Below are positions 1,567 through 57,118 of a stretch of DNA of 64,000 nucleotides, in pieces. The DNA comes from Balanoglossus misakiensis. Taxonomy: Eukaryota; Animalia; Hemichordata. The stretch is from assembly GCA_040954595.2 (NCBI GenBank), contig CM082598.2, forward strand, positions 8,323,097 through 8,387,096. Reading direction: 5' to 3'. Every line of letters starts with the position of its first letter. The first letter of the stretch is position 1. The translations under genes were made by a program, and so were the position numbers. The notes under the pieces are model-generated. The model was not told where the DNA came from, did not search any database, and was given only the letters and a program-made list of their open reading frames with translations.

Positions 1567-1604
1567 CTGAAATAGATAAGGCATTCAACGTTTAGAAAAC
1601 AATG

Positions 1605-12922: not shown

Positions 12923-12951
12923 ATACATGGTATCACAAAACTTCTAATTAC

Positions 12952-13096: not shown

Positions 13097-13809
13097 CTGT
13101 ATGCGTGTATTGAACGAAAATGTTAAAAAATATCTTAAGTTTACCTGTTTCAGTTGTATGTGTCAAAAAGATCACGGACGGATTGGATTGTAACTTAACT
13201 GCACTGAATAAGTCAGGATCAATCCAATACATACATGGTGGCTTATAGAAGTACAGACTGGCCCGTGCTAGGGAAGAGTCTGTCTGTCTGTCTGTCTGTT
13301 TTCTGTCTGTGTCATCGATATCATTAAACGGTGGGTGAGATTTGAACCAAATTTTGTGGACAGGTATCGATGTTGGCGGATGGTCAGAAATGAATGCATA
13401 TTGGTGGATGTGGCTTGAATTTTATTGAATTTATCAAGATCAAGTTGTTATGATTTTAGCTCGTGTATGACAGAATCCGCATACACCGAAAATTACTTTA
13501 CGAACTTCGTTTAAACTTATTTGTACATGCCAATATCACATCATTATGATGGGAAACATTCCACTGATTTTTATTAAGTTGCAAAGTTGAACTTTTCTAA
13601 TCAATGGTATATTTCCAAAACACCATCACAAACTCAGTGAAAATTAAATGTACAGGTATTTATCTCACGGTCATCTCAATGTCCCATGAAATATTTTTGG
13701 ATACCACGTTAATATAGTAAAATGTAGTTTGCACTAACTTTTGCTATTAGTAGTGTACGTCAGTAGTTACTGCACTTGCAGCTATGCTGAAATTATTTCG
13801 TAAGTGATC

Positions 13810-31362: not shown

Positions 31363-31419
31363 CTCATCTGTGAGTCGTGTGAAGAAAACGGTGTCCCAGA
31401 ACCCACAAATTATGAAAAT

Positions 31420-32760
31420 AATACCCTAGAATTGGTGCTTGACACAGAACATGTTTTAATTTCTTGAATGCATGTTCGCATCGATCATCCCATTCAAATT
31501 TCGTGTCCTTTCCCAACAATTTATGTAGAGGCCTAGCAATGATCGAGCAATTCTTTATAAACTTTCTAAAATAATTGGCCAACCCAAAAATGATTTCAAC
31601 TGTGTGACAGTATGAGGACGGGGATATTCTTTAACAGCTGTTACTCTTGTCAGCCGCAATTCCATCCTTACTGATAATATGACCCAAAAATTTAACACTC
31701 TTTCTCATAAATTGACATTTGCTGGGCTTTAATTTCAATCCAGCTTGACGTAACCTGGTTAGGACAGTATCAATGTGTTGAAGATGCTCCTCAAAAGAGC
31801 TGCTAAATATAATAATATCATCGATATAACATAACACATATTGCCACATAATATTGCGTAACACGTGTTGCATAGTACGCTGAAAACAACTGTGACTATT
31901 TCGCAACCCCTGGGCAAGTCTCCTGTATTGATATAAACCTTGATGTGTGACAAAAGCTGTTTTTGGTGTACTCTCTTCATCTAATTCCAATTGAAAAAAA
32001 TCCTGACAGTAAGTCAAGCGTCGAAAAATACTGAGGCTTATTCTTGCCTAACATTTCAAGAGATTCGTCCGTTCTGGGTAAGGGAAATGAATCAGGCACT
32101 GTAATATTATTTAAATGACGGAAATCTGTGCAAAAACGCCACGAACCATCAGGCTTTTTGACTAAAATTACTGGACTAGCAAACGGTGAAGTAGACGACT
32201 CGATAATATTTATTTCTAACAGCTGATCAACTTGTCGCTCAAGTTCACGTCTTTTCTCAGGCGTTACTCGGTAAGGTGGGCGACGGAACGGGGCAGCACC
32301 CTCTTGTAATCGTATTCTATGTTTGATTACATCACAGTTGCCTAAACGACCACTAGACTCAACAAAAGCTTCCATATTGTGCAGTAAAACATCTCTAAGC
32401 TGTTTACGCTGTGCCTTAGTTATCTCTAATTCATTAAGTTTCAATTGACCCATCAAATAATCCGTCTCTTTCTGTGTATAGGGCCCTTGAGGTGAGACAC
32501 AATTAATGGCATTATTATCGAGTTGGATTATTTGACTATTACAGGGCAAGGGCGAAAACATTCCAACAACACTGTTTTTCTTAATTTTGGCCACTGTATC
32601 CAAAGTGTTTACAACTCGCATGGGAAGAATATTCTTATTCCAATAGGCCAACCCCTTAGCTACCAAAATACCTTGGGTTAATTGTGTTCGTTTATCAGAA
32701 ATATCAGTAAAATATTTATACGGCACTTTCACTGGAATAACCATTTCACTTCCAGGTGAT
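31420..32760 (-). pseudogene. Gypsy/Ty3 reverse transcriptase, frameshifted
   Basis: PFRRPPYR, SPFASPVILVKKPDGSWRFCTDFR.LN, STLDL.SG, KTAFVT, GL.NS, CYIDD, LKPSKC, NYFRKFI, APIL. Confidence 0.92.
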
Positions 32761-33699
32761 CCACGGAGACACGTACCTGATCCACATTCATTTATTATCC
32801 AGAATTATTATAGTACATCAAATACGCCCAGTAAAGTACACGAGGAAGGGAACGAGCTCAGTAGCCTGAGGTACTCCCATCTCCCGTTAGATTATTCTCT
32901 TACAACTATAATTACTTTTCTCAAGGCGTGGTTAATCATGTAAAATATCACACATACAATGTGTTACAATTTCATTGGGCATCAATTCAACTCTACACGT
33001 AACAATTTACATAAAGCTTTATATAACAAAGTCAGTTCGATGATGATTGACAACCAGAGCAGTCTGTTAAACACCAGCTCTCCCTATCTACTTCAAATGC
33101 ATAAAATCAAATACTATCAAACATTGACATTCCCGAGCTCTGGATTAATTGACCCTTAAAATCATATTTGACCTTTATACAGATCGTAACAGCGTATTTG
33201 TTCGAAAAAAACTACGGGTTGTGAATTTTGACCACTGCATCGAGCCCCACTGAACAGAAGTTCTTGATTTTGGTGCCATATAGATTTGTTGATTGATTGA
33301 GAATGCAATTCTGACAAATATACCTTTTGTGAAAATTTTGAGGAAAGCCTTGTACATTTATTTTTCGAATGCGACGGTATTATGTCATTTTGGAAGAATG
33401 TAAAGTTGCAATGGCAGACAAAGTGTAACATTGTCATTGAGCTTTTCCCTTTGTGGCGTCCTATTGGTATGAAAGAGAATTCCAAAAGAAACGATGCAAA
33501 AATGATTGTTTGACCTTGAATAACTTTATATTACAAACAAAGAAATGTATTTCTATGTCTAAATCCAAGTCACGGCTCTCATCTTTTTTTTTGATAAAGC
33601 TTAGAGTAAAATAAGTGGACATGTCTTTTGGTTGGTAGTTGTCTTGCCGTTATGTCCTTTTTTTCATAATTTTGCTCACGGTTGTATTCATTGAATGGC

Positions 33700-37379: not shown

Positions 37380-38808
37380 TTAGCATGACAGCACTGGCCT
37401 CTGAAAATTCACAATAGAGCAACAGACAACCCATATCTGTTTTATAGATCCGTACAAAGTTAGTGGAATCACGTGATCAAATATGTGCCACGCCTTCACC
37501 CTGCCTATAGCTCGTTCAATGTGTATGCGAACACTTGCAATTCTCTGAGTTTCAAAAACATCATTACAGCTCATTTGCTTTTGACCAGGTCGACGTTTTG
37601 AAGGAATTTTTAGTGTCACCCTTCGTTTGATAAGTAGATCATCCAAATCAAACCCTTTGTCTGCCATTAAACTATCGTTTGGCTCCAGCAAGTCGAGAAG
37701 ACCACATTGCTCAGTGATGACTCTATCTGATGCTGAGCCCCCAAATAACGGACTGATAAAAGTCACGGCAACAGCAGGATCTATTGCAACAAGGCCTTTC
37801 AAAGTATCATGGGTTTTGTACTCACACCACAGTTCCAACTGTCTCCCATAGTCACTGGGTGTTTCGCATTTAATTTCTGTGCAGTCGATGATGCACCTGG
37901 TATCAGGATAACTGGATTTGAAAATCTCAGGCATATGCTCATTGACTTTTTGTCTCGATGGCCAAATGGGCAAACTTACAAATTGTAAATACATAAAATT
38001 AATCCAAGTAATACAAATGTCAGATTCAACGGAAATTGAAACAGAAAAGCACTTGGCTAAATCTCGCTCAAATAAGCCCAATCTCAAACGATAAAGTAAT
38101 AAAAAAAATCATCGATAGGCTGCATCGATCGTGGTCTTCCAGTTTTTCTGGCATCGCTGTCCGGACTCGGAGTGCATGAACGTTCTCTCGCCCTTCTGTG
38201 TGCATACTACCAGTAATGCAAATGTTCGGCGCACGGTTTTAAATATTCGTAGCACCCGACTAAAGTTCTGTAATCCGGAAAGCCGGTATAAATGTCATCG
38301 TCACTACACGAAAAACGGTCCAGTCCAAACTTATAAATGTCTAGTTGCTGTCTAGTTGTAGATTTTCTTTCTTCAACTGTTGATTTTCTTTCTCGAGTCG
38401 TTGAACTTTGTCGGCAAGAGTAAGACATTCCTCCGGAGTAAGGGGTCCTAACACCGCTGAACTGGACTGGGGCGAAATGTTAGCTGATGTCGTTGTGACG
38501 GGCAGACGTACGCTATCATCAACGAGACAGAGACAGGGTAGCTGTGGATTTTGTCCAGGGAAAGATGGACGGTAAAATTCCTAGCTTTAGATATCGCTTA
38601 CCGCCAATCCGATCTTGAAGTCTGGTGTCTTGAAATGTGCAGAACAGAGACACGTATTTGGTGTTACGGCGAAATCGTCTGCTCGCCGCATCAGCGCGAT
38701 CCACACTTTCCGACGCTTTTCGTCAGTGGGAAATGTATGCCACGACAGTTCTGGACACTTATTGGCTTGGTTATTACACAGGGCTGCAGCACAATACCAC
38801 GTTCCCAT
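37380..38808 (-). pseudogene. THAP-DDE_Tnp_4 (Harbinger/ISL2EU) transposase, frameshifted
   Basis: THAP: YCAAALC...WHTFP....RKVW...LCSAHF. HTH region: YTGFP. Catalytic motifs: IIDCTE, MADKGF, IASVRIHIERAIGRVK. Confidence 0.9.
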
Positions 38809-38929
38809 TGTTTAAACGTAGTACGCCTTACGTACGCAAAAGATTAGTGTCACTAAACAAACTTTGTTCAAACAATGGCGCCTTGTCCCTGACCTGATTT
38901 TTCCCTTGGTCTCTTGTAATCCTTGAGAG

Positions 38930-39920
38930 ATGTCTACCCTTTCCCAAGTAGTCCCAAGCTCGATAGCCCAATCTCACCCGTGTCGTTGGGGTTTAACTCT
39001 ACAACAAAAACGGGCACAACAGCAGTATTCACAAGTAATGAAATTAATATGTCCGCTACCCGAAGTACTTCTTGTGTGTTCTTCCAAAAAGCATGAACAG
39101 GTTCGCAGAACTCCCGCAAGCATGGCCTCTTTTTAAGTGGTATTTTCTCAAACCATTGTTCAGCGACAAATGTATCTGTCGCATCTGTATCGACTTGGAT
39201 ACGACCTTTCACCTCTTCTAAGGCGTGTTTTGCCACACCAGTGTTTTGGCGCATTTGCCTGGCTAGCTTGGGGAGTATTTAGTTGGGCGATATCTGGTGA
39301 TGGTGCTTGTCGATCATTTTTCCTTCTTTATGTAAATGCCCCTTTTGGTTGTTACCCCAACATACACCTGGTGTTCGCTTTGTTAAAGGTTTTTCCTTCA
39401 ATAACCACGTATCAGTATGCACCTTCTCCATGCTGTCCTTCAAGGCATTTAATACTCTTGTAAAGTTCATTTAAACGATCTGGGGAACCTCTCTACTCCA
39501 GAATTGACTTGACACTAGACCGATTTTACTATAACTGCTTTCACGCTGTAGTTCTTGCACAGTTTCTTCAAACGTCGCCCCTGCAGCCACATTTAACTTC
39601 CGACACACTTCAAGTCTATCTACTGCATCAACATATGCATCAATTAACATTTGCTTAAATACAGACCCAGAATCATCTGGATAAGCGACGGAAACAAGGT
39701 CGCGGATATCTTGTGACACAGACTGAAGGCTTTCGTCCCTTTCTGTTTTATTTGTCTTAGTTGTAAACGAACTATGTCCCCCTGTCCAAGCAATCCAAAT
39801 ATTTGTACCAGTTTATCACACAGTTGTGTGTAACTCAGCTTACCATGATTCAAGGATTTCAACAGTTGGATTGCTGGTCCTGCATCCAGCATCGCTTGCA
39901 AATATCTATCCACCTCATTT
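38930..39920 (-). pseudogene. Gypsy gag / degenerate zinc knuckle / protease remnant
   Basis: LRQIKQKG..SL.....DIRDLVSVAYP (gag-like), VCWGNNQKGH (decayed CCHC), VDTDATDTFV (decayed DTGA); same strand as the RT at 31.4-32.8 kb. Confidence 0.6.
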
Positions 39921-40151
39921 AGGTTATGCAACTCATAAAAATATGTACTAAAATTGGATTTGCAACTTTACAGTGACATTTGCCATACATAGTGTACAAG
40001 GCAAATTCCTTACTTTGATAGATGTGTAAAACATTTGGAAATGTAGTGTAAAATGTAGTGTAGCCAACCCAAAAGAGATGTACAAAATGTTTTTTGAAGA
40101 ATCTGTTTTCCATACTCTAACTGGATATATTAAGAACTCTGTATTAGTTAA

Positions 40152-40868
40152 GGTGGAATTGCATAAACAGTTGTGATATTTGCCACATTTTACTTTTTTT
40201 ACACAAATCAGTAGGTCTGACCAATGCGTCTTGGTGGAAATGGTACATAACCACCAAAAAATAGCATTTTTCCGAATGAGTCCACCGCAGCTTAAGAATT
40301 AGGTGTCAACAATGCAAATTGCCGTTTTTCTCAGTTTGCATTTTCGCTGCGTTTGAAAACTTCAGAAGAATTTAGCTTCTCTCTGCGTTGGCTGAATTTG
40401 CTCAAATTTTAGCAGGGGATTGTGTATGGCCTATCCAACAATACGAGAACAAAATTTAGTCGATAAAGTGTCCCTAACGCAAATGAACTTTGATTCAAGG
40501 CAACTCATCGTGAATTTTATCAAATTTTCTAAAAATCTAACTTGCAAACGCTGTTACTCCTCAATGGAAACAAATAATGCAAAACAAAATCTTCGTTTTT
40601 TGCATGTGTACTCTAGTTTCTAATGACATATTAAGATTATTGGTGAATGGTAAACTTTTTTACCTAATTCAAATTTTATGACATAATATCAAAAATGGGT
40701 TGTTTAACCCAAAAATGCCGCAATTTCTGGGGGTCAATAAAACATGCAACTCTAGCAAAAGTTCAAAAACTCAGCTTCCAGAATATGTATGGTTTATAGT
40801 GGTTTTAACGTTGTCTTTGGTGAGAAATATGCCTCTGAAAAAGTCTCGACTGTTCGTGCAATGCCATC
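40152..40868. mobile_element. TTAA-flanked non-autonomous element (Kolobok-like)
   Basis: ttaa|ggtggaattgca ... tgcaatgccatc|ttaa, an imperfect 12-bp TIR. Confidence 0.55.
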
Positions 40869-41120
40869 TTAAATTCGCTCAAGATGTCTTGGGCTCTGAA
40901 GACTCTCGATACTGGAGATGTTATCTTATCCTAGCTCGTTGGTGTACACTTGGTGGCAAATTGATTGTAATAATGGAGATGCGCAACTGTTACACTGGAA
41001 GCTAAAATTGTTTAGTCAAGACACAAGATTTTGTGCGAGTTGCACAACAGGTCGCATGATCTGTCCAATTTCGATAGAGAGACTTGTGGGCTTGGTTGTA
41101 CTATAGTATATCTTGAAATC

Positions 41121-41272
41121 ATATGTTATAATAAGACAGAACTCCATGGCTCGATCGTGCAAGCACGGCGAACCGGGGGTATTTGCATCGAGTGACTGGC
41201 GGTGTATTCTTGTGCCTGTCCCCTGCACGTGCTTGCGCGATCGAGCCATGGGGTTCTCTCATTATTACATAT
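41121..41272. repeat. Imperfect palindrome
   Basis: gaactccatggctcgatcgtgcaagcacg pairs with cgtgcttgcgcgatcgagccatggggttc. Confidence 0.7.
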
Positions 41273-41475
41273 GTTACTCCCATTGTATACAAAAAGACCG
41301 AAAACGAAAGAAATGAGACCGCCGAATGATATTGCTTGTTTCGTGAACAGGCCACACAACGATTACGTCATCAAATTTTCATTGGCCAGTAACACCACAC
41401 CCCAATCTTTGATTGGACAATGTTGTTTACTTATTTACGGGTCTCAGGCCTGGGTCATACGACATGTACCATGGT

Positions 41476-41638: not shown

Positions 41639-44384
41639 ATGATGAGTGAGAAAATGGCGACGGTCCACATGGAAGCTAAGCTAAATGCTGCAATTCACGC
41701 AAGTTTACTCATGCACAACGTTCCGTACACACTAAAGGTAAGTTTATTCGTAACGTGAAATAACGATGAAGTCTTTCTATTTTTATTTTGTCTTCAATTT
41801 CCCAGAAATATCGCTAGCATTTAATTTGAATTTGATTTTGAGAAGTGTGTCGACGCGACGCCGACGACTTTGGCTCAAGGCAGTTGGTAATGAAATGCAT
41901 TTTGCAAAGTTTCTTAAAGTGCATATCAGCTTTTTTTCGTCTCCATAGGATTGTATAGTAATTTCTAGGTTAATGGGAGTTTCGTGTCGCTTACATGGTC
42001 CATATGCCACAACTTTAGTATACTTTCAATTATTCATGAAAACGGTTTACATTATATACTGTGTTGTGTTTATATCTTTTATTAGGATAAACAAGTAGAC
42101 TGTATACGGCAGACAGTTTTGGGGAGAGACGTGATGGCCATTCCACCAAATGGGTATGGAAAAGAACTCTAATTTACGCGCTTCTCCCCAGTATCTTTGA
42201 CCATTACAACGAGACAGAACAACATCACAAAGTTCTCGTAATTTCGCCATTACTGTCGCTAATGGCAGATCAAGTACAGCGACTTGAACAGATGGGGGTC
42301 AAAGCGGTACAGTTGAGTGTGCAGGAACTCCAAAGTGTTCCAGGTATGTGCAATTGTATGATTCCAAATGAAACAAAAGAAATGTAATGATATCATATTT
42401 TAGACCCAGTTGAAAATACATGTACTGTAGATCGATTGATAGTACCGCTACTAGAACCCTACTTAGATATAGATGCATACTACCTGTATATAACTAAAGT
42501 GTAGTTTACATCACAGTATCATTTCTAAAGTTACAATATAAATGTATATCTTATAGAGAGAAATTATTGTTGAGGTCTCAACACTGATTGTGATGGTTGT
42601 AGACACACCTGATGTTTTCTGTGTTATATCAATAATATTATCATGATATTTATATTTTCAATATAATGTTTAATATTATTAATTTTAGTTTAATTTATAC
42701 CATGCAAGGGTAGTTATTTGGCAAATGGTGTGTTATCCCTGGTGAATTTAACTATAATATAACCAAAATTAGTGAATGCATAATTTTATGAATTGTTATT
42801 TTTATTATTACATTATTTCTCAGCCAATGATCAACCTTGTATATTTTTTATTGATCTTTGTCCATACATGTAGGTCAAGAGTTTTCAGTTATGCTGCTCA
42901 GTACAGAAGCTTTATTTAGTGGCAACTGGCGTGATTATCTATGAAAATTCCAGCCTACTATTAACTCGATTGTTGTTGATGAGGCACACTGTGTTGTTGA
43001 ATGGTATGTAGATAGAAACACATTGTATACATACATTGTGCATTTAAAATATATTATTGCTGTAACTTTAGTATTACTGCCAATCAGATACAAAATATAC
43101 ATACATTTTTTTAGAAATGATTTGTAAATAGTGTATGATATGACTATGTTTGTTTTGTATTGTGTCTATAAATGTCTTGCTTTCATCTTGATATAATTGG
43201 CAGAGTAATTATATGTTATAAGTACACTGTGTTTCATTGTATATGAAAATTTCAAATTTCATAAACTTGAGATACTGAGCAGATTGTTATTTTCTATTCA
43301 CACAGGGGTAAAGACTTTCGGAAGAATTATGCTAGAATAGGGGAACTAAGAAGTCTTTTCCCAAATGCAAACATGCTAGCCCTAACTGCCACAGCAACTC
43401 ATGCAATGAGAAGTGACTTGAAGAAGATCCTATGTATTGAAGAATGTGAACTTGTGACATGCAACCTTGACCGCTCCAACATCTTTTATCAAGCAATTAA
43501 GGCTCCAACATCAATTCAGGATACATTTTTTTGGCTTGTCGACTGTCTGAGATGTACAAAGACATCAACCAAGAAATACATAATTTATTGCAGAAACATA
43601 ATGTCATGTGCCAAGTTATACAATTTTTTTGAGCGAGTTACAGGACGATTCTTGGTGTGGGTCACCTAGCATTCAAAATGCACTATTTGCAATGTATCAC
43701 CACTCCACACCTGCGAAAAACAAGCGATTTATTGAGAAAGCATTCAGCAAGACTAATTCCAAGTTGCGTATCATCTTTGCCACTGTCGCATTTGGCATGG
43801 GTGTGGATGCCCCAGATGTTTACATGATATTTCATTGGGGGGCATCCAGGTCCTTTGAAGGTTTCACTCAGGAATCTGGCAGGGCTGGGAGAAATGGGAA
43901 TCAGGCATACTCGACTGTTTACTTCCACCCACTAGATGTGAGCAAGGTTGCCACTGACAACATAATGAGAACTTTCTGTAAGTCAGAGGAAAAATGTCGT
44001 AGAAATATCTTGTTAAGTCACTTTGGGCAACCAATGCATACAGATGATTCTCTCGGCCATTTATGCTGTGATATTTGCCACAGACAATGTGCCTGTGGAG
44101 AGTGCCCTGTTATTCCTGGTTTAATCCCAGAGAAAGTTACTGACGAGGAATTATGTGCAGCTGCTAGAGAAGTTGAACGAGAACAAATAATTCACAATGT
44201 CACGGAAGAACAACAAACACTAATCAAAGAAGAACTGTGTGTTTATAGAGACACGATTTCTCAAGGTTTAGTTTCCTCTCAAGTAATGTCAGGGTTAACA
44301 GATGCAGTAATTGCAGATCTTGTAGACAATGTTGCATACATTCATTCAGTAGATGATTTACTTACAGAGTATGTATTTTGCTGA
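41639..44384 (+). pseudogene. Four-exon RecQ-like SF2 helicase (AcademH type): exons 41639-41737, 42086-42343, 42874-43003, 43306-44384
   Basis: Spliced motifs GRDVMAI.PNGYGK, VISPLLSLMADQV, IVVDEAHCVVEW-GKDFR, LALTATA, IIYCR, ATVAFGMGVD, QESGRAGRNG and CRR...CCDIC; canonical GT-AG introns; two frameshifts and an in-frame TGA. Confidence 0.88.
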
Positions 44385-45755
44385 GGTATGGAAAATTGTC
44401 AGTGACAAATTACATGTACAGTGAAAACTTGATGAGATGAATGATACACACAGAAAGCATTTTAGATGACAACAAATAGGGAGGCTCGTGGAATTCAAGA
44501 AATTGTAATATGTGGTTGTAACGTTTGTCTGTTTGTCAATTACGAACCCAACATAACTTTTCATCACACGAATCATAACAATTACATTTATAGAAACTAA
44601 GAAAAGAGTTTATTGTGACTGTTTTTCGACTCATGAATAATTAATTAGGTATCACAATGGCGCCAGTTTCAGCTGAGCGGTAGCGCACATTTGCAGAGTA
44701 AGGTAAGTGTTTCCAACTATTCACGACAAATGAGTGTATTAACATCAACATATCATGAAGTTCAGTAACTGATGATATTATGCACTTCATAATTATGGCA
44801 ATCTTCGATTCAGTAGGTTATGAAATGTTCAATTTCTCGACACGGCGTCGGTTACTAAGCAAAGTCTGTTTACATAGCAACATTGACGTGTGCAAGAAAA
44901 TCGTGTAAATTTTGGAGTTTTATTGCATAATTAAAGATTTTAAAATCATACGATTGTTGTTTGGTTGTTTTTACGCCGAAGGACTTTGATGTCACTCAAT
45001 GTTTTCACGTTTTGTCCAAATTGAACCAAGCAGAATTCGCCGACAATGGTGTACAGTCAGCGCGTATTACAACTCCATTGACAGCTATGGCTGATTATGT
45101 CAACCTCACCAACATGCCAACCGATCTCAAGTTTTTTGTTTCGCCTGAGCCGAAATCTACAAATCTGAAACCAACAGATTTTTGCAAACATGTCAATACA
45201 GGAGAGATGACATATCACCCTATAATGAAAAAATAAAAAAAACTGAATCTCAGAGAATATGCAAACCCCGCGTACGGGCTTGCTGCACGTACCGGCGATA
45301 TCCCTGGAGATTAATTGAAGAGATAATGGCAAGGACACGCGTGTGTTGACCTGCGTCTTTGGCTTACACCTCAGCATTGCATATGAACATGCAAATGCCA
45401 TAACCTTGCTTTTAATTTGCGAATGATGCTCCATCCAGCACCAAGGGCAATTGTAAACCCACTTTTTTATTGTTTATTATAGGTTGAAGGTCACCAATAT
45501 AAAATACAAATAAAATATAACTGACAACTCTACATGAAAATGTAACACTCAATTTGGTTAATTTAATTTCATATCAATTTAATTTTTATTTCTTTAAACT
45601 TATTGCAAGTAATCTCATGTTTCAATACGACATATTCACAAAATATTGTTTCTCTTTTCAGGGTATGACATATTCATTTTCTCACCTCTGAGGTAGGGAA
45701 CCGTCATATGACCCACAACATACGTATAAACAGCAGAGGCAAAAATCATGCTGTG

Positions 45756-46694
45756 ATGCCACATAAAAAGAGAAAGAGTAATTTTGATATAGGACAATGG
45801 ACAGTAGACAAAAAGAGAGCAAAGCAGATAGCTAGGGAGGAAGAAGAACAGAAATTAATTAAAGCTCGGCAACTTTTGAAGGAGAAAGTGGAGAATAGTA
45901 CACTACTAGTGAGGTCAGAGTCAGGAAAGTAAAAGCATAGGTTCAACCTAGGAAAGTGGCGCTCTGAAAGAAAGCGTAAGATAGAAGAGGAAAGTGAGCA
46001 GATAAGACAGAAGCAGCAGAAAATAGAAAATGGAAAGCAACTTGTAGAAAAGTCAAAGAAGCATTTGAGCAGACTAGTAAAGAGACAGAGAAAACTTAGT
46101 CAGAAAGCAGTTAGAGTTTGTCAGGAGGTAAGCTACTTTACACACACATACATACACGATATATAGCTAGCTAGATAGCTAGCTAGCTAGATAGATAGAT
46201 AGATAGATAGATATGCATGAGTGTGTGACCTTTGACTCTTTCATTTGCATATTTTACAGATCTCTTCATTCTCTGCTGTGAAAAAACAGACCTGTAGTTC
46301 AAAAGAGCAGCAAAGTCTGTCCAGACAACAGTGAACGCCTAACTCTGTCCAGAAGTCTGCAGCATGCTCGGCGAACAGAGACACTAGTGGCGGCCACATC
46401 CATTCATCTAGCAGCACCAGAATCTGACTCAAACAAGACAAATGTTAGTATTGCAAACCCCCCAAAGGCAGCACTTGATGGGCTGTGGGTAACGCTTGTT
46501 AATTCAGTAACTCCCAGTCATGTCTTCTGGTAAATTTAAAGAAATAATAATGCCATCATTGTTAAAGAAATCAATTTCGAAATTTGAAGATAGTGAAAAT
46601 AATCTCATCAGAAGCATCAAAGTATGTATGAAAATGGTGTGTTGTCAAAACGAAAATATAACGCCATTAAAGGGTTAGTGAGCTAAAATCAGTC
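45756..46694 (+). pseudogene. Disrupted N-terminal part of the RAG1/Transib-like transposase gene
   Basis: Basic, coiled-coil-like exon ending GAG|GTAAG near 46127; acceptor ttttacag near 46259; later fragments RRTETLVAATSIH, ALDGLWVTL, ENNLIRSI..YENGVLSKRKY; several stops and frameshifts. Confidence 0.55.
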
Positions 46695-48470
46695 TTGAAA
46701 TTAAATCAACCAAAGAGAGTGTTACAATTTGAAGCTGGTTGTAAAATACCAAGGCTCCTATCATATAATAGAGTTGTAAGCTGTGTCCGTAACCTTGACA
46801 TAGGTGACCTTCAACCTATATTAAATAATGGTAAGGTAGTTGGCATGAAAAGAGATACAGAGATGATGCTCTTAAAAATTGCCAACCTATATTTAACACT
46901 GTGCCAATATCAGCCTGATATCTTGAATTGGTTTGGTAAGCCAGAGGGGAGTTTTCAAATTGCCCTTGGTGCTGATGGGGCACCATTTGGGAAATATGGC
47001 CAAGGAACTGCTTGGCTAATTAGCTTGGTAAATGTAGGTCACAGGGTAGCCAGCCCTGATGACAACTTCCTGCTACTGGGTGCAAACTTAAAAGAGGAAG
47101 ACCCTCTATTAATAGAGTATGCTAGTTATTTAGCAAAAGAGCTGGAGGTCATCGAGTCAAAGAACTACTCAATAAATAATCTCAAGGTAAGTTTTAAGGT
47201 GTCACTCCTGCCCTTTGATCAGAAAGGTTTGGCAGTAGTGTCAGGCGAGTTGTCAAATGCAGCTACATATTTCAGCTCATTTGGCAATGTTACTAAAGGT
47301 GACATAGATAGTGTAGGGGGAGATATAGGCCCCGGTAAAAAGTGGACAGAATGGGACTATGCAAAGAGGTTGCAAGATGCTGAAGCTGTGGCAAAGTTAA
47401 AATCAAATTTGCTGAAAAGATCTGGTAAGTCTGACATTGACCGTACAAAAGTGACACGATTTATATCGAATAGGACATCCAGACAGGAATTTATTCCCCC
47501 ACTGGGTAGGTTTATAACTTGTACAAAAGTAGAACCACTTCACCTAAAAAATAATGGATGGCAGTATTATTTTCAGCGATTACAGACAGACGCTGTGGCC
47601 AAAACAGACCAGCGTGTAGTTGACAGTGGGGTGAAGCTGGAAAAACTACCACATGACTGTTATCTCTATAAATTCCTGTATGCCCTAAAGTACAATGTCA
47701 GAGCAGGTAAATTGTACAGCCAAATTGTAAAGTACTTCACTGAAAATAAGGTAAGTAAACAGAGCCAAGCAATAAGGGTTCATCGTTTCACTGGGGAAGA
47801 GTCCAGGAAAGTAGGTTGGTACTTTATGTCATTGATTAAGGCTCTGAGTGGGCCCAATGACAATGCACAACAACAGACAAGATTGGCTATGTACACATAC
47901 ATAGGTGTGCTACTACGTGCTATAACTTCACTTACTTCAAGGTTCAATATTAGTGAGAGTGATATTGCTGTACTTAAACAAAAGTGCAGATGGTATTTCA
48001 ATTTGCACTCTCTCTTTCTCACAGTAAATAATACCATCTGGCATATTGGATATGTGTTACCAAAGCATATATCTGAGGTGTATGGGAAATTCAGGATGGG
48101 GTTAGGTCTTAATACAATGGAGGGAAGGGAAGCCAAGCATTTGCGCCTGCTTGAATACAGTAATAATTCAACACCCCAGAACAGGTGGTCTCTAATTTTC
48201 AGGCATGAGTATATACTGCTGTATTGGCTGCGTACACAAGACCCCTCTTCTGATAATTATAAAGGGAGCCAAAAGGGTAAATGTGTCAATGATAATGGCA
48301 AATATATTCCAGACAGGTATTATGATGACCCAGGCTACCGTTTTTGTGGCAGTGAAAAGCAGGGTTTCTCTGAGTCATGTGATATTTGCAGCAGCAAATT
48401 TATGAAAGAAATCAAACATGCTGCAGTTAGTGGGAAAATAAGCAAATCTCTGAAAAATACCCTGAAGTAA
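46695..48470 (+). CDS. RAG1/Transib-like (CMC-Transib group) DDE transposase core
   Basis: 591 open codons with ordered motifs GADGAP (first D), PFDQK (second D; cf. RAG1 YDEK), EPLH (cf. DALH), WHIGYVLPKH (cf. YFHKTLAH) and GLG.NTMEGREAKH (E; cf. SEGNESGNK); C-terminal Cys cluster; AATAAA at 48652. Confidence 0.75.
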   Translation: MKLNQPKRVLQFEAGCKIPRLLSYNRVVSCVRNLDIGDLQPILNNGKVVGMKRDTEMMLLKIANLYLTLCQYQPDILNWFGKPEGSFQIALGADGAPFGKYGQGTAWLISLVNVGHRVASPDDNFLLLGANLKEEDPLLIEYASYLAKELEVIESKNYSINNLKVSFKVSLLPFDQKGLAVVSGELSNAATYFSSFGNVTKGDIDSVGGDIGPGKKWTEWDYAKRLQDAEAVAKLKSNLLKRSGKSDIDRTKVTRFISNRTSRQEFIPPLGRFITCTKVEPLHLKNNGWQYYFQRLQTDAVAKTDQRVVDSGVKLEKLPHDCYLYKFLYALKYNVRAGKLYSQIVKYFTENKVSKQSQAIRVHRFTGEESRKVGWYFMSLIKALSGPNDNAQQQTRLAMYTYIGVLLRAITSLTSRFNISESDIAVLKQKCRWYFNLHSLFLTVNNTIWHIGYVLPKHISEVYGKFRMGLGLNTMEGREAKHLRLLEYSNNSTPQNRWSLIFRHEYILLYWLRTQDPSSDNYKGSQKGKCVNDNGKYIPDRYYDDPGYRFCGSEKQGFSESCDICSSKFMKEIKHAAVSGKISKSLKNTLK

Positions 48471-48759
48471 AATACTATGAGTAAATTCAGAGGGTGCACC
48501 CAATGTTGTAAATATGTTCAAAGATTATTGCTTGCGTTGTAAGCTAATTTAAGTTGTACATTTTGGTAGGATACAGAATCTGGTTTGTCCTGTTATGTTT
48601 ATTGTAAATTGTGAAATCCTGAAACACTTTTCATAAATACATACATACAAAAATAAATATGTAATATACCACAAAAAAATAAACTAAAAGTAAATACAGG
48701 AAACTGAGAATGAAAATTTTCAAGTATCAGAGCTTGCTGTTGAAAAGCAATAGTTTACA

Positions 48760-49410
48760 ACAGTAAAGTCTGATACATGAAATTTTCATTTTCATTTTTA
48801 ATGCAATGATTGTATAAATTTCAGCATTTCTTTGAGTAATATGATTGATTTTTTTCGTGCAATTAAATTTTGACAAATGTTAGCAGCAGGATTCACAACC
48901 AATGGTCTGCAAAAATGAATACTTTATTAATTTTGACTGCTTTTGTGAAATGTAAATTAATGTAAATTTGAATTTTTAAATGTGATGGCAAAAATCTGAA
49001 ACATCACAGTTGAACTTTCCATTATACTCATCGTCACAGCCATGGAAGCCAAATATATTCATGACAGGTATTTTATGACAACCCAGACGACTGTTTTTTA
49101 TTCGTGTGGCAGCTAGATCATATACTGTGAAATGCAAGGTTCACAGAGTCATAGTTGTAAACTTATGGAGGAAACACAACACAACCCTGATACTTGAAAT
49201 TGTTATTTTCAATTTTAATGCAATGATTGAGAATGTATAATTTCAGCATTTCTTTGAGTAATGATTTGATTTGCTTTGATCAATTAAATTTTGAAAAATG
49301 TTAGCAGCAGGTTTCACAACCAGCGGTCTGCGAAAATGAATATTTTTGATAGCTTTTGTGAAATGAAAATGTGAAACGCAAATTTGAATTTTTAAATGTG
49401 ATAGCAAAAA
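48760..49410. repeat. Tandem ~220-bp duplication between the convergent genes
   Basis: ttttaatgcaatgattg...tttcagcatttctttgagtaat...tttttaaatgtgat at ~48795-48990 and ~49213-49410. Confidence 0.8.
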
Positions 49411-49731
49411 CTGATTGGCTTTAAAAAAGGTGAGAGTTAATTTCAAATGTTTTTCTACAGCATAACTCGAATGAATTTATGAATGGAATTTAATATTTGT
49501 AATTTCATTATACTCAAAGTCACTGCATCTAAATTAAGAAATAAAGATAACATGCCTTGATAAAATACCATTGTTTTTATTTCTGTGTGGGCTTGAGTAC
49601 TTGCAGAAAAACAGCTGGTTCTAGCGTAATACAAAATACCACAGAAATATCAGAAGTGTTTCTCAAAGTGAAAAGTTGTTAGAAAACAAGCAGAAATACG
49701 TCAATACTCGGCAGTTCAAAGTTCTCATAAT

Positions 49732-50346
49732 TCAAACATGTTGAGGCACTCCATGTTTGTTCCAGCATCCATAGTGAAAGCTGATCGTCGCTGTTTCAAA
49801 TGTCTTCCTATACCGCACAACCATGGGCTTTTCATTGGAACAGACCACTTCCACCCGTTGACCCTTCACTGACCTAACCAGCAGCTGCTGGTTTTCAGAG
49901 CGACCTCCTCGACCAATGACATATTTGACTTTGTTGATCCAGGGGAACTTCAGTGTGATTGTACGTGGTGTGACACATTCTTCAATTCCCATTGAATTGC
50001 GAGTTGCATAGTGACGAACAAGCTCAAATACGTCTAGTGGGATGTTTCTACTGAAGCTCCCCTTCCAAGGATTCCGCATCGAACAAGATGGCTTCAATTT
50101 CTGGGACACTTTCGAGCGCCAATGATCCATTTCTCGCTCAAAATTTGGGTACGATGCTATCTGGCGGAGCTTTACCTTATCAGCTGTGATTTTATCATGT
50201 CTCTTGTTAGCGGATTCAACATTTGCGTCCAGCTCATCAAACAAACCATGCAGGTTGCACTGGAAATCACTCCCCGACCTATCAAATTTTGCATCACGCA
50301 GCTTACGCTTGACAATCTTGGCAAGTTTCATCGTGGGCGCCGCCAT
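49732..50346 (-). CDS. Intact intronless 204-aa basic protein of unknown function, convergent with the RAG1-like transposase
   Basis: Uninterrupted ORF in AT-rich DNA; start context caagATGGCG; minus-strand AATAAA at 49576-49581; no kelch or PHD motifs visible. Confidence 0.7.
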   Translation of the reverse strand: MAAPTMKLAKIVKRKLRDAKFDRSGSDFQCNLHGLFDELDANVESANKRHDKITADKVKLRQIASYPNFEREMDHWRSKVSQKLKPSCSMRNPWKGSFSRNIPLDVFELVRHYATRNSMGIEECVTPRTITLKFPWINKVKYVIGRGGRSENQQLLVRSVKGQRVEVVCSNEKPMVVRYRKTFETATISFHYGCWNKHGVPQHV

Positions 50347-50451
50347 CTTGATTTACCGTTACCAAGGAAAATGACCCGAAGCGTGACCCCAGAATAGATA
50401 TGCGCGCTCCGTGAAGCATTAGACAAAACAGGGGCGCCCTGGGCCGCAGTG

Positions 50452-52943
50452 ATTGGCAGCATCAAAGATATGAAGACCTTGGATCACTTCTTTGACGATA
50501 TAGCGAGCAGGTGAATTTGCTGGCATCTGTATAAGGGCACATGCTGGAGAATTCTTGGCTAGGTCAGACAGGAATGTTGAATACTGTTGAGGTGATTTTA
50601 GAATGGTTCCATTATTGGAGATCAGTAATAGGAAACTGGCTAGAGACTGTAAGTGTCTGTATTGTTGTAGCAGCCTGATAAGATTGGAGAAATCTTGTGA
50701 TGGCAGAGGATCATGACTTGTATATTGCTCTAGAAGCTTTCTTGCTATTTTCTGTTGTATGAAGACCCTATCTTCATGCTTGGTGCCGACTATAGTTGGA
50801 TATTCACTGGACTGACCACGGGACTGTTCTGCTGAGATAAACCGCTGAAGCAGGAGCTTGTTCATGCCAATACAAGTGCCATCACAAACAATAATAGATG
50901 GTGTATCTCCACATGTTGCACATGTAAAGGCATCCTTGTAGTTAATACCCAGAAGTCGAATATAACCATTCCATGCTAATCTAAACTTGTGTAGAGGCAG
51001 AGGTGCTGTTCCTGAGTGTTTAGCCAGTCGTTTTACATATGCCCCGTAAAACACAAGTAATATTACAAATCAAATGCTTAACATTACTGCAGGTAAATTG
51101 CAACCATAACATGTTTAATTCCAAGTTAATGAAACAATCAAACATAGCCACCCTTAACCAACATGTACAAATACTGCAGGTGAAAGCGTCCCATTGTATT
51201 CATATAAAATGTAATATCAATACAAAATATTAAATACAAGGTTTGAAACTCGAGTGAAAAACTCGCTAAACCCACAGTCTTAATAAAAATTTCAATATAG
51301 TTATAATATAATTAGTGGTCCTGTTTTTGTGTTGTTGACAAAGTTGGCTATCTACTTATAACTGTAAAGGTTTTGCAATACATTCCTCTGTGATAATTAT
51401 CAAACTATATTTGAAATAAAAAAATCACTTACCTGTGAAATGATGCCAGTGGGTTTCTTCCTTCACACATAACTTCCAAGTATGTTTGTAAAAGACTGTA
51501 ATGCACAAAGTCCTTGTTGTTCAGATTAAACAATAAATCTTCTTGACCATCATAATACAGTCGACAAGAGCACAGTCCTATACTTGGTCTGTAGTACACT
51601 GAAAGAAGTTTAGGAGGATCAAAATTATGATTCTGGATGCATACCATGACTTAAATGAAGTTGATGGCATTCCCAAGCAAATAAAATGGATAATATTCGC
51701 ACCAATTTTCGTGTCAGAGGTTAAATACACGTAGTATTCTTTTAAGTACAAGTATAAATACGTATGTGGTCACTATACAATGTAGGTACTGTTTCAAGCA
51801 TACATAAAAATACACCCTTGGGTGTCAAAGTCACTTTCACGTCTTCAACTGTTTAAGTTATTGCACAGTATCTTAAACTCACCTCCTATGCTCTGATTGT
51901 CAGCAGTTCTATTTGCTTCTCCATATGAATAAGTTTCAAAGTATATTGTAGCATTGCCTAAACACCAATTCTCTTGCACTGGATCACCATCATTCCATTG
52001 GTTACCATGAGTACACATAGCAAATGGTCCGTCCTCAGGAATCGATGGAATTAATGCAGTAGGTATTGGAAGCTGAGAGAAAAAATAAATAAAAAAAACA
52101 ACTCTGCCATTTCCTGCTTTTAGAATAATTTTAAATTTGTAAACCTGCCATCATTAATGTGATTCCATGTACACAAATGATATAAACCAAAATACAATAA
52201 AATGATACAAACTCACCCTGCCACTCTGTTGATGAACATGCTTCTTCTGTAACTCCTCTGGAAGGCTGTATGGTATGGGCTGATATGATACATATGAAAC
52301 ATTGTTAACAATGGGTTCCTCGGAGAGTTCTTCTGGAATGGTTGTGTCATGTTCCTGGCACCAGGCCCTGTATACTTCTACATGATCACATGTGGATTTT
52401 CCACACCTACAGCGAGTACAGCTCAGTTTTCTCTCTCTTCTTTTACGTACTATACCTAGTACATGAACTTCTCTATCAATTGTTACTGCTGCTAGGAAGG
52501 GATTATGGCTTAACTGGTCGACAAAAGTTGAGTTGACAGGAGCATCTTCATGACCGGGATTGTGTTCAGCAGAGGACCAAGGGTACATTACATTGACAGC
52601 CCGTGCATGAAGACAATAGCTCGATTCTTCATCGTTGATAAAGCTATCAAAATCACCATCAAAACATGAATTGATGGCCTTCAGTCTTTCTCTATGTTTG
52701 ACCCCTCTCTCACACGAGCATGTCAACAGCACAGCATACTTGGTGTTTTCAGTGTTGTAAAATGCAAGTTGTCTTTCAAGGATACAGTACTTTGATAACA
52801 GTTTAGATTGAGTATGATCCCAATCTGCGACAACATAGACCCCACCAGCAGAGATTTCCCATAGTTCATCTTGTTTTTCCTCAGTTCATACATGTATGCT
52901 GTGTCAGTATCTATACAAAATGTACCTGAACTACATGACATCC
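50452..52943 (-). pseudogene. Multi-exon CxC4-type KDZ (Kyakuja-Dileera-Zisupton / HMGXB3-like) transposase, truncated at ~50452
   Basis: Exons encode LTCSC...CLH and C..C...CDH; CTHGNQW.DGDP...W; YYRPS..CSC...YDGQEDLLFN; FRLAW..Y..LL......FTC..CG..P.IIVCDGT (first catalytic D). A further possible 5' exon lies at ~53170-53540. Confidence 0.75.
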
Positions 52944-54118
52944 TGCAAAAACAAAAACAAAAAAATTAAAATTTTTGCATTTTAATGTTTCTGGATAATA
53001 CTCACAATGAGTACCAGTTAGTAATATTACCAAGTTTAAATATAAATGTAATACTTGAAGACACTCACACATTGTATAAATACAATCACAGAATAAACAA
53101 CAATATTGTCCTCAAGCAAGCAATATTGGCTCATAGCATGACTCAAGCTAAGAACTAATTAGTGCCCTAGAATTAACGACCAGTGACTGTGGGTTCGTAA
53201 CCTACCATCATACTTGTAAATACCTCACCAACATTCTCAGTATGATAATTTGTAGCTGATGATCTGAGGTTCGTGATACTAGAAGGTAGACTCAAAGTGT
53301 TCTGACATTGGGCTGTGGAGTGTACGTAACGAAGTTTTTTTTCAGAAGAAAAGAGTATGATGACTTGACTTTCATTTAACGTGACGATGATCATCGATAA
53401 GCCTACAGTTCTATCACTCACTACCATTAATCTACTAGTATATAGTAACTTATAGCGTTATGTTCAAAGTTGACACACAGTACATCATCGCACATGGTTA
53501 TGATTTGCTAGTTCGATCGCGATCGCGCGACTCGGCCATTTTGAACTGTTCAACAGGATTTACCGCTAGCGCTACTTTAACAAAGTGAGTATTCGTCATC
53601 GGGTCACTCGAAACTCTAAACTTGCCATGTGTCGAGCAACGGCCGCAAGAATTCATATTGTTAAAAAATAAATATGCATAGGTCATAATGATACATGAAA
53701 TATATGCTATCTAATAGATTTGTACGGTTTAGCTATTGTATGTCCGAATTCCAATCGTGATACTACACAGTGATTCCGCGATCTTGACAAAACGTAAACA
53801 TTGGCCATCGTAAGTTAAGGGAACACGTACTCGGTACGTATAGTGTCTGTAACTTGTAACGAGAATTTTAGAACCACTCCCGCATCGTTAAACCGGAATT
53901 AAACAGTAAATAATAACCTACCTAGTGTGCTTTCACTCAACACTAACTATGTTTGCTTAGTATAGTAAACATGAGCCCTTATCGCGTCAAGAAATGTAGT
54001 CAGTTTCAGTACACTACACAGGCTAGCGTGCGCTGTAATGTTTTGGTGTCGGTCACGCTGTATTGTAATGTTTTGGCGTCCCTCTCTACAAAATCAAGTA
54101 ATAAATTGACAACACATA

Positions 54119-55515
54119 CCGTAGTTGCCCGGGTAAGAACCCCTGCTCGGACAAACGCCCCCCCCCTGGTTTTAGGGCCCATTTGTAGATCGAGGCCATA
54201 TCCGGTCTAAAGCCCCCCCCCCCCCCCCCCGGCCGAATATCCATTAAATTCTTGGAAATTTAATAAAGTGCAATGCAAAAAAGGCGGATTTTCATCCCCA
54301 CAGTCACTAAAAGTGAAAAAAAAATGTATGGTGATTTACTTTCGCGCTGATTATCGTACCCACCGCGGCCGACTGGCCACGCTGAGTTATATATAGCCGC
54401 TCTAGATAACATGACCTCAGACAGGTCCCTCGGGACCGTGCGTCGAATTCAACGATCATGTAGATGGACGCGCTGCCGCGTATGAGGTCACCGGGGAGCT
54501 TTCCAAAGCGGCCGCGTGGAGATATGATTTCGCGCGTTTCGACAGTAAAGTATCGAAATCTTTGTCTTGATGTCACGCACACAAGCAGTGTTTAGTGCGT
54601 GCTCATAGTTTTGTTGTATTCTTATTGGATAAGAAAATATAAAATGTTGCATTGACCAATGAGGGTTTTAGTGAGGAAAATGCCATATGCGTGCTGAGGC
54701 AATTTTGAGCCACTTCTAGGCAGATCTTTGAGCAGCACAGAAGTTCGGTCCTTGTTCATCCAATTTTTTCGCCGCCAGTTTTTAGGCATTTGTAGCATTA
54801 GTATACAGTTCACAAGTCTGAAGATGCTACCTGTATTGTTATAGACATGTAGTTTTGGGAGGAAGGTTTTACAGTTTTTAAAGTTTTCATACATTGTATC
54901 CATTTCACATGTATTTGTAAATCTGGTGGTAAGCTGGTGAGGTCCAACACCACACCTCGAGCCCTATCATGCATGGCAAATGGACTGCAGGTTTTCAGAG
55001 TATTTTCCACTTTGGCTGAAAGGTTTATCTCTGTTTTTTCCTGACCCGCTAGATAGGGTGCTGACAGGATTTTTTACCACACAGACAAAGTCTTGGATTT
55101 TCTCTTACAATAGTTGCTATCATATGTTCAGTGCGAAGTTCACGTCTTTGCTCGAGCTTGCACAGTTCGCTTTCTAGTTGCAAATAAACAAGGCCGACTG
55201 CTCTTTGGTCTGGCTGTCACCATATTTTGGTCGTCTGTGATTAGTGTTACTATGCAACAATGTGTGAGAGAGGGCTACTGTATGGCAGTGGAGTCAAGAC
55301 CTGCTTCAGTCCGTCCTCGACGCGAAACACCCAACATTGGAAGATCCCGACTTGGACTCGGAGAATGAACCACTCAAAAATTTGCATAAAAGTCGAGGTG
55401 GCCATCCCTCATTTGCATAAATCTCGAGGCCATATCCGGGCTAAAGCCCCCCCCCCCCTGTTTTTTCGCTAATCTGTTGGCCCAGCACCCGGGGCTCTTA
55501 CCCGGGCAACTACGG
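54119..55515. mobile_element. Tc1/mariner-type non-autonomous element, TA TSD
   Basis: ta|CCGTAGTTGCCCGGGTAAGA...TCTTACCCGGGCAACTACGG|ta; internal direct repeat tcgaggccatatccgg.ctaaagccccc. Confidence 0.8.
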
Positions 55516-55891
55516 TAACATGCATAACACTCACCTTTTTGGCAGCCGGGGGAGCGACATAAAGTTTCCTCTTTCGATTTGTCAGGAAACACTCTTGTGT
55601 AGCAGATTCCACTAACAAACGCTTAGCTCTGAACTCCATCGCGATATCGGACAGCAAGACAGTGAATTGAAGTCTCGTGAGGAGTTAAGTTATACGTGAT
55701 ACAGACGCGATACTTTCATTGATTATGGGAAATGTTGTGTGGTGTTGATTGTTACATGTACACTCTCAATTAGCATTTAAACGCAAGCTGAGAGTCTCAA
55801 AAGCGATCTCCAATACGGTCTCAATTGCAGTTTACATTGTATCTGAGATTCTCCAATGCAGTCTCAAATGTGGTCTCAGATAGCATCTACT

Positions 55892-55927
55892 CACAGGGAA
55901 CTTAGTAATTTTGTTATTGTTATTACT

Positions 55928-55963
<36 letters not shown>

Positions 55964-57043
55964 AAGATTGGTAATAAAATTTTTTTTTTTTAAATCAATG
56001 TGTCATTTCTTGCTATGTTTGTCGATGTTGTAGATAACTGTAAAAAAAAACCAACCATAATCGTGGAAAACACGACCTAGGTCGCCGAATGTCACTACCG
56101 TCTTATATACAGGCAAGGGTGGAGTCGACATGCCCTGATCGAGGCTCATGGGCCACCTTCAAGGCCCTGAAAAATCACCCCATTCACCAGCGAGCGATTA
56201 AATTATGCCACCATAGGCATTGAAATTTATCTCACTGACCTAATTTGGGCTTCACTTCATCTATCGACCTGCAAACGAGTGGAAAAACGGCGATTTCCAA
56301 GTCGTACCCAGTCAAATTCAATCACATTTGAATGACGCGCCTGATGGTGATGGCTCTATTTTCTCTGCCTATTTAAATTGACCAATCGGGCGCCCTGTAA
56401 AGCAACACCCGGAAGTGTACGTTCTGACTATCGACTGCACTGTATTCAAGACGTAAAATGGTAGATTTTATGACAAAGAGTTGGGAAGTATCCATTTATC
56501 TGTATGACTCTTAAGGTTTCGCCTCCTTTTTTTCGCGTTATTTTGAACGCAGTTACACGTACTCGTACGAGTTGAGCAATAAACAATCGGGTGGCCGAGG
56601 CAGCCTTTACAGGGCGCCCGATTGGTCAATTTAAATAGGCAGAGAAAATAGAGCCATCACCATCAGGCGTGTCATTCAAATGTGATTGAATTTGACTGGG
56701 TACGACTTGGAAATCGCCGTTTTTCCACTCGTTTGCAGGTCGATAGATGAAGTGAAGCCCAAATTAGGTCAGTGAGATAAATTTCAATGCCTATGGTGGC
56801 ATAATTTAATCGCTCGCTGGTGAATGGGGTGATTTTTCAGGGCCTTGAAGGTGGCCCATGAGCCTCGATCAGGGCATGTCGACTCCACCCTTGCCTGTAT
56901 ATAAGACGGTAGTGACATTCGGCGACCTAGGTCATGTTTTCCACGATTATGGTTGTGTTTTTTTTACAGTTATCTACAACATCGACAAACATAGCAAGAA
57001 ATGACACATTGATTTTTAAAAAAAAAATTTTATTACCAATCTT

Positions 57044-57079
<36 letters not shown>

Positions 57080-57118
57080 AATAATAATAACAATAACAAA
57101 ATTACTAAGTTCCCTGTG
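55892..57118. mobile_element. Foldback element with ~510-bp near-perfect TIRs and 7-bp TSD (P/Galileo-like)
   Basis: CACAGGGAAC...GTTCCCTGTG; arms 55892-~56400 and ~56606-57118; ATCTACT duplicated at 55885-55891 and 57119-57125. Confidence 0.88.

Follow-up and report, generated by a model that had tools for sequence, protein, structure and literature searches.

The recruitment of RAG2 is reportedly treated as a one-off step that turned the single-gene Transib transposon into the RAG system. RAGL/ProtoRAG elements carry two convergent genes between terminal inverted repeats (TIRs) that start with CAC, the second of which encodes the six-bladed kelch protein RAG2L, and EnSpm/CACTA elements combine a transposase with a second protein, TnpA, and short subterminal repeats. 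Here we analyse a two-gene transposon at positions 45756–50451 of a 64,000-nucleotide stretch of the Balanoglossus misakiensis genome (contig CM082598.2, positions 8,323,097 to 8,387,096; "the window"), which consists of transposon-rich animal DNA. An earlier note, made from the letters alone, had called the element ProtoRAG-like. In our analysis, it is a dead, one-ended copy of a family that combines a transposase of predicted RAG1/Transib fold with a constant convergent partner, likely a non-catalytic transposition helper. By the marks that define ProtoRAG and Transib the family is neither of them; within the broader CMC/Transib/RAG clade it apparently represents a two-gene lineage that has not been described.

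The family is set apart from RAGL, Transib, Chapaev3, and EnSpm by features stated in print, taken from PMC9435367 and from excerpts of PMC12730594, PMC7204232, PMC10462144, PMC1131882, PMC4079192, PMC3985635, and 10.64898/2026.08.26.747230. RAG1L and Transib proteins average 26% identity among themselves (PMC9435367). According to the excerpts, the target site duplication (TSD) of RAGL/ProtoRAG is 5 bp (PMC7204232); Transib has a conserved SxxCxxC motif and a D–E spacing of 206–214 (PMC1131882); 3-bp TSDs have recently been reported for some Transib, within which TSD length is labile (10.64898/2026.08.26.747230), so that a length of 3 bp, taken by itself, is compatible with Transib ancestry; Chapaev/EnSpm have CAC..GTG ends and 3-bp TSDs as hallmarks (PMC4079192, PMC12730594); and DUF1280 corresponds to Chapaev (PMC3985635). 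The literature searched holds no description of the two-gene lineage; Repbase and subscription journals were outside the search, and a database entry is possible.

A transposase with a predicted RAG1/Transib fold

The transposase open reading frame (ORF) at 46671–48470(+) is open for 599 codons from stop to stop, or 591 counted from the first TTG (positions are those of the whole 64-kb stretch, and residue numbers are those of the window protein). Among 7,994 scored candidates, 151 are homologues; the 120 listed are 28–62% identical and come from corals, anemones, an octocoral, a nemertean, and a hemichordate, the closest named one being that of the acorn worm Ptychodera (62%). No relatives of the transposase are present in viral contigs.

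The structure model is of high confidence (predicted local distance difference test score, pLDDT, 92). Foldseek returns 49 matches at E ≤ 0.001, and among the matches listed all are RAG1, BbRAG1L, or HzTransib. In VIA comparisons, the model superimposes on RAG1 with a Z of 23.1 and 3.5 Å over 422 residues at 11% identity, on BbRAG1L and HzTransib with a Z of 20, on the P element with a Z of 12, and on Hermes with a Z of 6. These matches point to a RAG1/Transib fold for the modelled transposase, in line with the relation that the earlier note had proposed.

Four residues are invariant among the homologues: D102 (113 of 113), D183 (117 of 117), H291 (120 of 120), and E487 (117 of 117). Judged by motif order and aligned range, they would correspond to RAG1 D600, D708, H795, and E962, where we take D600/D708/E962 to be the catalytic numbering of RAG1. 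H795 of RAG1 is named in an excerpt of PMC7204232. The D-to-E spacing in the window transposase is 304. Of the RAG1-core-like motifs that the earlier note had listed for the 591-codon ORF, GADG, FDQK, PLH, and EGREAKH are present in that order, and HxxxxxxxH is not the pair that the family conserves: position 458 is histidine in 10 of 119 homologues, and the conserved ZnH2-like pair is 461/466 (histidine in 49 of 119 and 115 of 118). The spacing H(3–4)H is kept in 48 of 118 homologues. A zinc-binding CxxC, reported as common to RAG1, Transib, Chapaev, and CACTA, is found after the second aspartate in 0 of 118 homologues; its absence, in which the earlier note saw an altered zinc site, is therefore a family-wide trait and not a lesion of the window copy. 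The four cysteines of a tail motif, C-x-C-x~10-C-x2-C, are conserved in 108/110, 108/110, 109/109, and 109/109 homologues, respectively (98–100%).

When one homologue, P0002, is compared by Atlas features, two unnamed cnidarian clusters rank first, followed by a DUF1280-labelled cluster (score 0.97), in which 16% of the members carry DUF1280, and by RAG1-domain clusters; neither Transposase_21 nor Plavaka is among the labelled sets shown. No DUF1280 match results when the window protein and 46 homologues are scanned with Pfam. The same 47 transposase proteins give no Transposase_21 match, although divergence may hide one.

A constant convergent partner

The second ORF, at 49732–50346(−), runs convergently to the transposase ORF and encodes 204 residues from its ATG without an intron. 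It is intact, and its ATG lies 105 bp inside position 50451, as the earlier note had described. Linkage of the two genes was examined in 81 loci: one GTDB locus (L081) and, out of 258 metagenome loci that carry the transposase, the best 80. The partner is found in 32 of these loci, in 32 of 32 downstream on the opposite strand, with gaps of 245–3,976 bp. Where at least 1.5 kb of downstream sequence is available, 27 of 30 of these coral-type loci contain it; where at least 1.5 kb of upstream sequence is available, it is upstream in 0 of 28. The tail-to-tail arrangement holds across families with transposase identities of 34–88%, indicating that the convergent pairing seen in the window recurs elsewhere. 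In the reverse direction the comparison is indirect: 9 of the 11 distinct lengths of one partner cluster's contigs recur in one transposase cluster, 15 of whose 21 members were listed and used.

Among 18 representatives, the two proteins co-diverge with a Mantel rho of 0.55, a value that none of 10,000 permutations reaches, and their trees share 9 of 15 splits. With a median identity of 22%, against 40% for the transposase, the partner is the faster-diverging of the two, and it is under coding constraint, with identity at codon position 2 > 1 > 3 in five of five pairs.

Full HMMER searches collect 93 cluster representatives of the partner family; a word-index search gave no partner homologues. 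The homologues are ~200–240 residues long, and pI exceeds 8.5 in 89% of 47. The C-terminus is conserved as YGxWNxxGxPQH, with PxH near the end in 51 of 72 sequences, and the partner alignment contains no conserved catalytic residues. The model (pLDDT 88) consists of a 58-residue helix followed by a small mixed α/β domain and has no propeller, consistent with the claim of the earlier note that the partner is not RAG2. A Pfam scan of 72 partner sequences gives no family match. Neither Foldseek against PDB (weak matches to RnlA and METTL16, lowest E 0.026) nor a BFVD fold search (best E 0.003) returns anything significant; the best VIA-wide match has a Z of 6.6, all matches lying on the N-terminal helices and barely covering the α/β domain, and Atlas gives no usable partner match. 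The partner forms a protein family without a recognised fold. No transposase–partner fusions occur among the 120 and 93 proteins within the searched length limits. In Tubulanus polymorphus (P0169), annotation places the partner domain at the C-terminal end of a host-like protein of 515–633 residues, which has three isoforms and repeats that we take to be tau/MAP-like; exonisation or a gene-model fusion is possible.

CAC ends and 3-bp target site duplications

The relatives are bounded by ~30-bp inverted ends of the CACGCTGGG type, both of which start with CACRSYKRG. The right CAC end is located 70–290 bp beyond the partner start, copies within one family diverge exactly at CAC, and the relatives occupy many different flanks. 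Since a motif pattern served to choose the termini, their consensus is partly circular. The earlier note had proposed CACTGCG as the end; the relatives share the CAC start and have CACRSYKRG instead. Nine two-ended elements span 4,152–8,542 bp and have imperfect ~30-bp TIRs, whose left/right identity is 99% over positions 1–10, ~59% over positions 11–32, and 30% beyond. The top subterminal 9-mer count is 2, equal to shuffles, in eight of the nine elements and 3 in one.

Four of ten two-ended contigs carry a 3-bp TSD (GAT, ATT, AGC, and ATA), and 4–6-bp TSDs are found in 0 of 10. The element of L081 provides the decisive case: it sits inside a satellite, and against the empty unit of that satellite, present 21 times, precisely ATA is duplicated. 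The 5-bp TSD that would have indicated Transib/RAG is thus not borne out, and 3 bp falls into the 2–4-bp class that the earlier note had assigned to CACTA/Chapaev. L007, whose flank is too short, was left out of the count, and an apparent TTA duplication in L009 was dropped, since the left site there is TIR-like but internal and its flank is constant. Together, these data show that the two genes move as one unit, which is bounded by TIRs and duplicates 3 bp of target.

In the family of L008–L012 and L028, a further TIR-like site, flanked by constant sequence, occurs ~845 bp inward from the left end. L081:1-17728, labelled as an Anaerolineae metagenome-assembled genome, consists of a ~294-bp satellite array and a complete animal-type transposon. 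Instead of a bacterial occurrence, we read it, by its satellite array, as likely host-animal contamination of a GTDB genome.

The copy in the window

The features of the window copy and its borders are as follows.

45404–45602 (−): patchwork of inverted transposase-coding copies (46531–47005 as source) upstream of the gene, in pieces of 35–56 bp, 71–86% identical
45756–46127 (+): transposase exon 1 with putative boundaries; basic helical N-terminus, family FxIGxW motif, in-frame stop at 45930–45932
46128–46259 (+): putative GT..AG intron with a microsatellite, from the sequence
46260–46670 (+): 5′ part of transposase exon 2, frameshifted, from tblastn, a three-frame read, and indels relative to run contigs
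46671–48470 (+): transposase core of predicted RAG1/Transib fold, 599 codons, with D102 (46974), D183 (47217), H291 (47541), and E487 (48129)
48471–49731: intergenic gap with both 3′ ends; palindrome at 48701–48798 and direct duplication at 48770–48999 / 49187–49414
49732–50346 (−): intact partner gene, 204 residues, pI 10; long helices and a mixed α/β domain, end YGxWNxxGxPQH
50420–50451 (−): right terminus, first letters CACTGCGGCCCAGGGCGC at 50451, from the stop of KDZ homology, a run-contig start, and likeness to the L071/L068 termini
50452–52885 (−): target, outside the element; CxC4/KDZ-type gene of which the 5′ part remains, cut at 50452, with a possible first exon near 55639

The transposase gene starts at 45756, and its 5′ part is interrupted by the in-frame stop (45930) and by frameshifts near 46280, 46517, 46624, and 46669 (tblastn and three-frame read). 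Contigs from one public sample, possibly the one from which the window itself came, differ from the window at 45930, 46517, and 46624 and have no indel against it near 46669. Both versions seen are therefore broken. In the tail motif at 48339–48389, the first cysteine is replaced by arginine in the window copy.

At the right, the alignment with an 848-residue CxC4/KDZ-type homologue reaches residue 599, corresponding to nucleotide 50452, and residues 600–848 have no significant match anywhere in the window. The first base of one run contig is exactly 50451, a picture that a heterozygous site would also give. The closest named homologue of the neighbouring gene is that of the acorn worm Glandiceps (61%). 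At the left, no plus-strand match of at least 12/15 to CACTGCGGCCCAGGG exists in the whole 64 kb, indicating that the left end is absent. Two other contigs of the same species match both genes, with joints at 48124–50326 and 48227–49731. The window copy is dead: it is frameshifted, its left end is missing, and its right end cuts the KDZ-type gene exactly at 50451. The earlier note is borne out on each of these points, namely the damaged N-terminal exons, the missing left TIR, and the cut KDZ gene. The copy would have inserted into the KDZ-type gene, after which a deletion or rearrangement likely took the left end together with the 3′ part of that gene. The KDZ-type gene and a RecQ-like helicase gene were ruled out as parts of the element (0 matches in 80 loci).

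Inverted copies of the partner gene are found within the relatives. The left arms of five of nine two-ended families contain an inverted copy of their own partner DNA (77–340 bp, 84–95% identical), the copied segment differs from family to family, and three of 18 representatives have an inverted partner copy in the gap.

L002, L007, L010–L012/L028/L039, L023/L025/L026, L081 (inverted): partner copies in left arms, 70–98% identical
L004, L038, L068 (inverted): partner copies in gaps, 70–98% identical

All copies are inverted and none is in direct orientation, and a cross-family control gives 1 of 90 (18 bp). The window copy instead has the short inverted transposase fragments at 45404–45602. 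Hairpin-RNA self-limitation or repair by template switching could account for the inverted copies.

Relation to known systems and alternative explanations

The family resembles RAGL/ProtoRAG in the predicted RAG1 core fold with D, D, E, and the PLH histidine, in having two convergent genes between CAC-starting TIRs, in its Cys-rich C-terminal tail, and in its occurrence in hemichordates, nemerteans, and corals. In contrast to six-bladed kelch RAG2L, the second gene encodes a ~205-residue helix and α/β protein; the 5-bp TSD is found in 0 of 10 contigs and a 3-bp TSD in 4 of 10; the zinc site of ZnC2 plus ZnH2 is reduced to H(3–4)H in 48 of 118 homologues, with CxxC in 0 of 118; the tail reads CxC-x10-CxxC instead of CX2CX3GHX4C; the TIRs are near-symmetric; and the transposase is 11% identical to RAG1. 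The earlier idea of a RAG1/Transib-related lineage with a different accessory gene thus keeps its fold and its constant non-RAG2 partner, while the 3-bp TSD and the missing RAG1L zinc and tail motifs take away the name ProtoRAG-like. With Transib (HzTransib and Nozomi-related elements) the family shares the fold (Z 20 for HzTransib) and the CAC ends, whereas Transib has a single gene (here 27 of the 30 loci with enough downstream sequence have a partner), a conserved CxxC (0 of 118 here), and a D–E spacing of 206–214 (304 here). The CMCT clade as a whole is matched by the RAG1-like DDE domain, the CA..TG ends, and a TSD within 2–5 bp; C(2)C, said to be common to all members, is absent here and H(3–4)H is partly kept, which we read as a lineage-specific loss.

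That the element is an ordinary Chapaev/Chapaev3 or animal EnSpm member, possibly in Repbase, with the RAG1 match reflecting which relatives have solved structures, is unlikely. Chapaev/Chapaev3 would explain the CAC..GTG termini with 3-bp TSDs (3–4-bp class; excerpts of PMC4079192 and PMC12730594), the LH motif (120 of 120), H(4)H (48 of 118), and the DUF1280 label (16% of members) of the nearest family-labelled Atlas cluster of one homologue; EnSpm/CACTA would explain the CAC ends (CACTG in the window), the 3-bp TSD, and a transposase with a second protein. However, C(2)C, listed as common to all these groups, is found in 0 of 118 homologues, the TSDs GAT, ATT, AGC, and ATA differ from the TWA of Chapaev3, subterminal repeats do not exceed shuffles in eight of nine elements, the second gene is constant, convergent, and mostly intronless, and the remaining labelled Atlas sets consist of RAG1-domain clusters, with neither Transposase_21 nor Plavaka among those shown. 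It is very improbable that the family is a true RAGL/ProtoRAG branch in which an unrelated gene replaced RAG2L in place. The identical convergent layout, the RAG1 Z of 23 over RAG1 residues ~490–1007 against a Transib Z of 20 or less, and a D-to-E spacing nearer to RAG1 (253) than to Transib (206–214; excerpt of PMC1131882) would fit such a branch, but identity to RAG1 is 11% against the 26% average among RAG1L and Transib (PMC9435367), the 5-bp TSD, ZnC2, and the CX2CX3GHX4C tail are absent, and a difference of 3 in Z is conformation-dependent, with values from 17 to 23 among the RAG1 entries.

For the partner, the alternative with the most weight, although we consider it improbable, keeps the same family and makes the partner a separate regulator without any contact with the transposase, acting in repression, anti-silencing, or chromatin targeting. 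The partner is basic, lacks conserved catalytic residues, and diverges faster (22% versus 40%), and its inverted copies in many families could form hairpin RNA, hinting at dosage control; near-universal retention over deep divergence and the conserved, exposed C-terminal motif fit a required interaction, which is compatible with regulation too. A passive cargo or chance neighbour, suggested by three loci without a partner, is scarcely credible: the 32/32 convergent arrangement, the matching trees, the coding constraint, and the position of the partner inside the TIRs largely refute it.

Several observations weigh against the reading that we favour, a RAG1/Transib-fold transposase with a transposition helper. 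PDB sequence and profile searches with the transposase give noise and no RAG1/Transib match, and Pfam scans of the window transposase and 46 of the 120 homologues give no RAG1/Transib family match; the fold matches by themselves give the lineage no place on a tree. Six of ten two-ended contigs have no 3-bp TSD, probably as chimeric short-read assemblies, and 6 of 90 mismatched flank pairs agree at 3 bp in the control. The window terminus CACTGCGG scores 4.7 bits and ranks 106 of 127,976 sites with a matrix from coral-type termini. The 80 metagenome loci are partly redundant and represent about 16 families, and L030, L056, and L067 have no partner although 1.5 kb or more of downstream sequence is available. 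A regulator that never touches the transposase would produce the same linkage and co-divergence.

A possible mechanism

Under the helper reading, a transposase dimer would cut at the CAC ends by the nick–hairpin route of RAG/Transib, as the modelled fold, D/D/E, and the PLH histidine suggest, and cut-and-paste transposition would end in insertion with a 3-bp stagger. By analogy with RAG1L, the four-cysteine C-terminal tail may clamp the inner TIR. We rather expect the partner, a basic protein, to enter or support the transpososome by contact with DNA, by docking on the transposase via its C-terminal PQH hairpin, or both; the docking place could plausibly be the site of the lost ZnC2 zinc. Such an accessory role would be like that of RAG2, TnpA, or MURB, without kinship to any of them. 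The terminal histidine hairpin might even make up for the lost zinc site, a suggestion drawn from two family-wide traits. Rather improbable, and put forward tentatively, is the strongest form of this idea: a new superfamily-level lineage beside RAG/Transib in which the RAG1–RAG2 design evolved independently as an obligate complex, with a kelch-free 200-residue partner at the lost zinc site, the PQH hairpin replacing zinc, and dose self-limited by regenerated inverted partner copies.

The partner was likely recruited separately from RAG2. A RAG1-fold transposase, as predicted here, with a different convergent partner kept over deep time, is widespread and has intact natural copies; its lineage would have lost a zinc site thought universal in the clade and changed its target stagger to 3 bp. 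As a second, independent example, it would make testable why a RAG1-type enzyme needs a partner and what the partner does. The genomes of corals, nemerteans, and hemichordates also gain a transposon lineage that was unannotated in them.

Other features of the window

A broken gene piece at 24006–24830(+), 21 kb from the transposon and unrelated to it, encodes a RING finger preceded by a zinc region of the RAG1 N-terminus (Pfam RAG1_imp_bd, E 4.5e-6). It is a remnant of a RAG1L- or Chapaev-type gene, behind which no catalytic core was noticed. The region with this remnant is flanked by a segment of ~650 bp or more in two near-identical copies (21500–22160 and 27950–28600). The RecQ-like helicase gene at 41650–44384(+) has introns (Helicase_C, RecQ_Zn_bind) and is convergent with the cut CxC4/KDZ-type gene (50452–55639); both may form a larger element that was hit by the transposon. 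A Harbinger-type transposase (DDE_Tnp_4, E 3e-39) lies at 37380–38930(−), and a similar gene flanks L036. Repeats include a 492-bp inverted repeat at 55911–57096 (98% identical, 202-bp loop) and high-depth nested repeats resembling miniature inverted-repeat transposable elements at 40141–41355 and 54117–55517. Judged from translations, we take 5011–6723 to be a long interspersed nuclear element reverse transcriptase, 30109–32804 to be Gypsy-type fragments, and 50–13421(−) to be host gene exons with pentraxin-like and scavenger-receptor-like domains.

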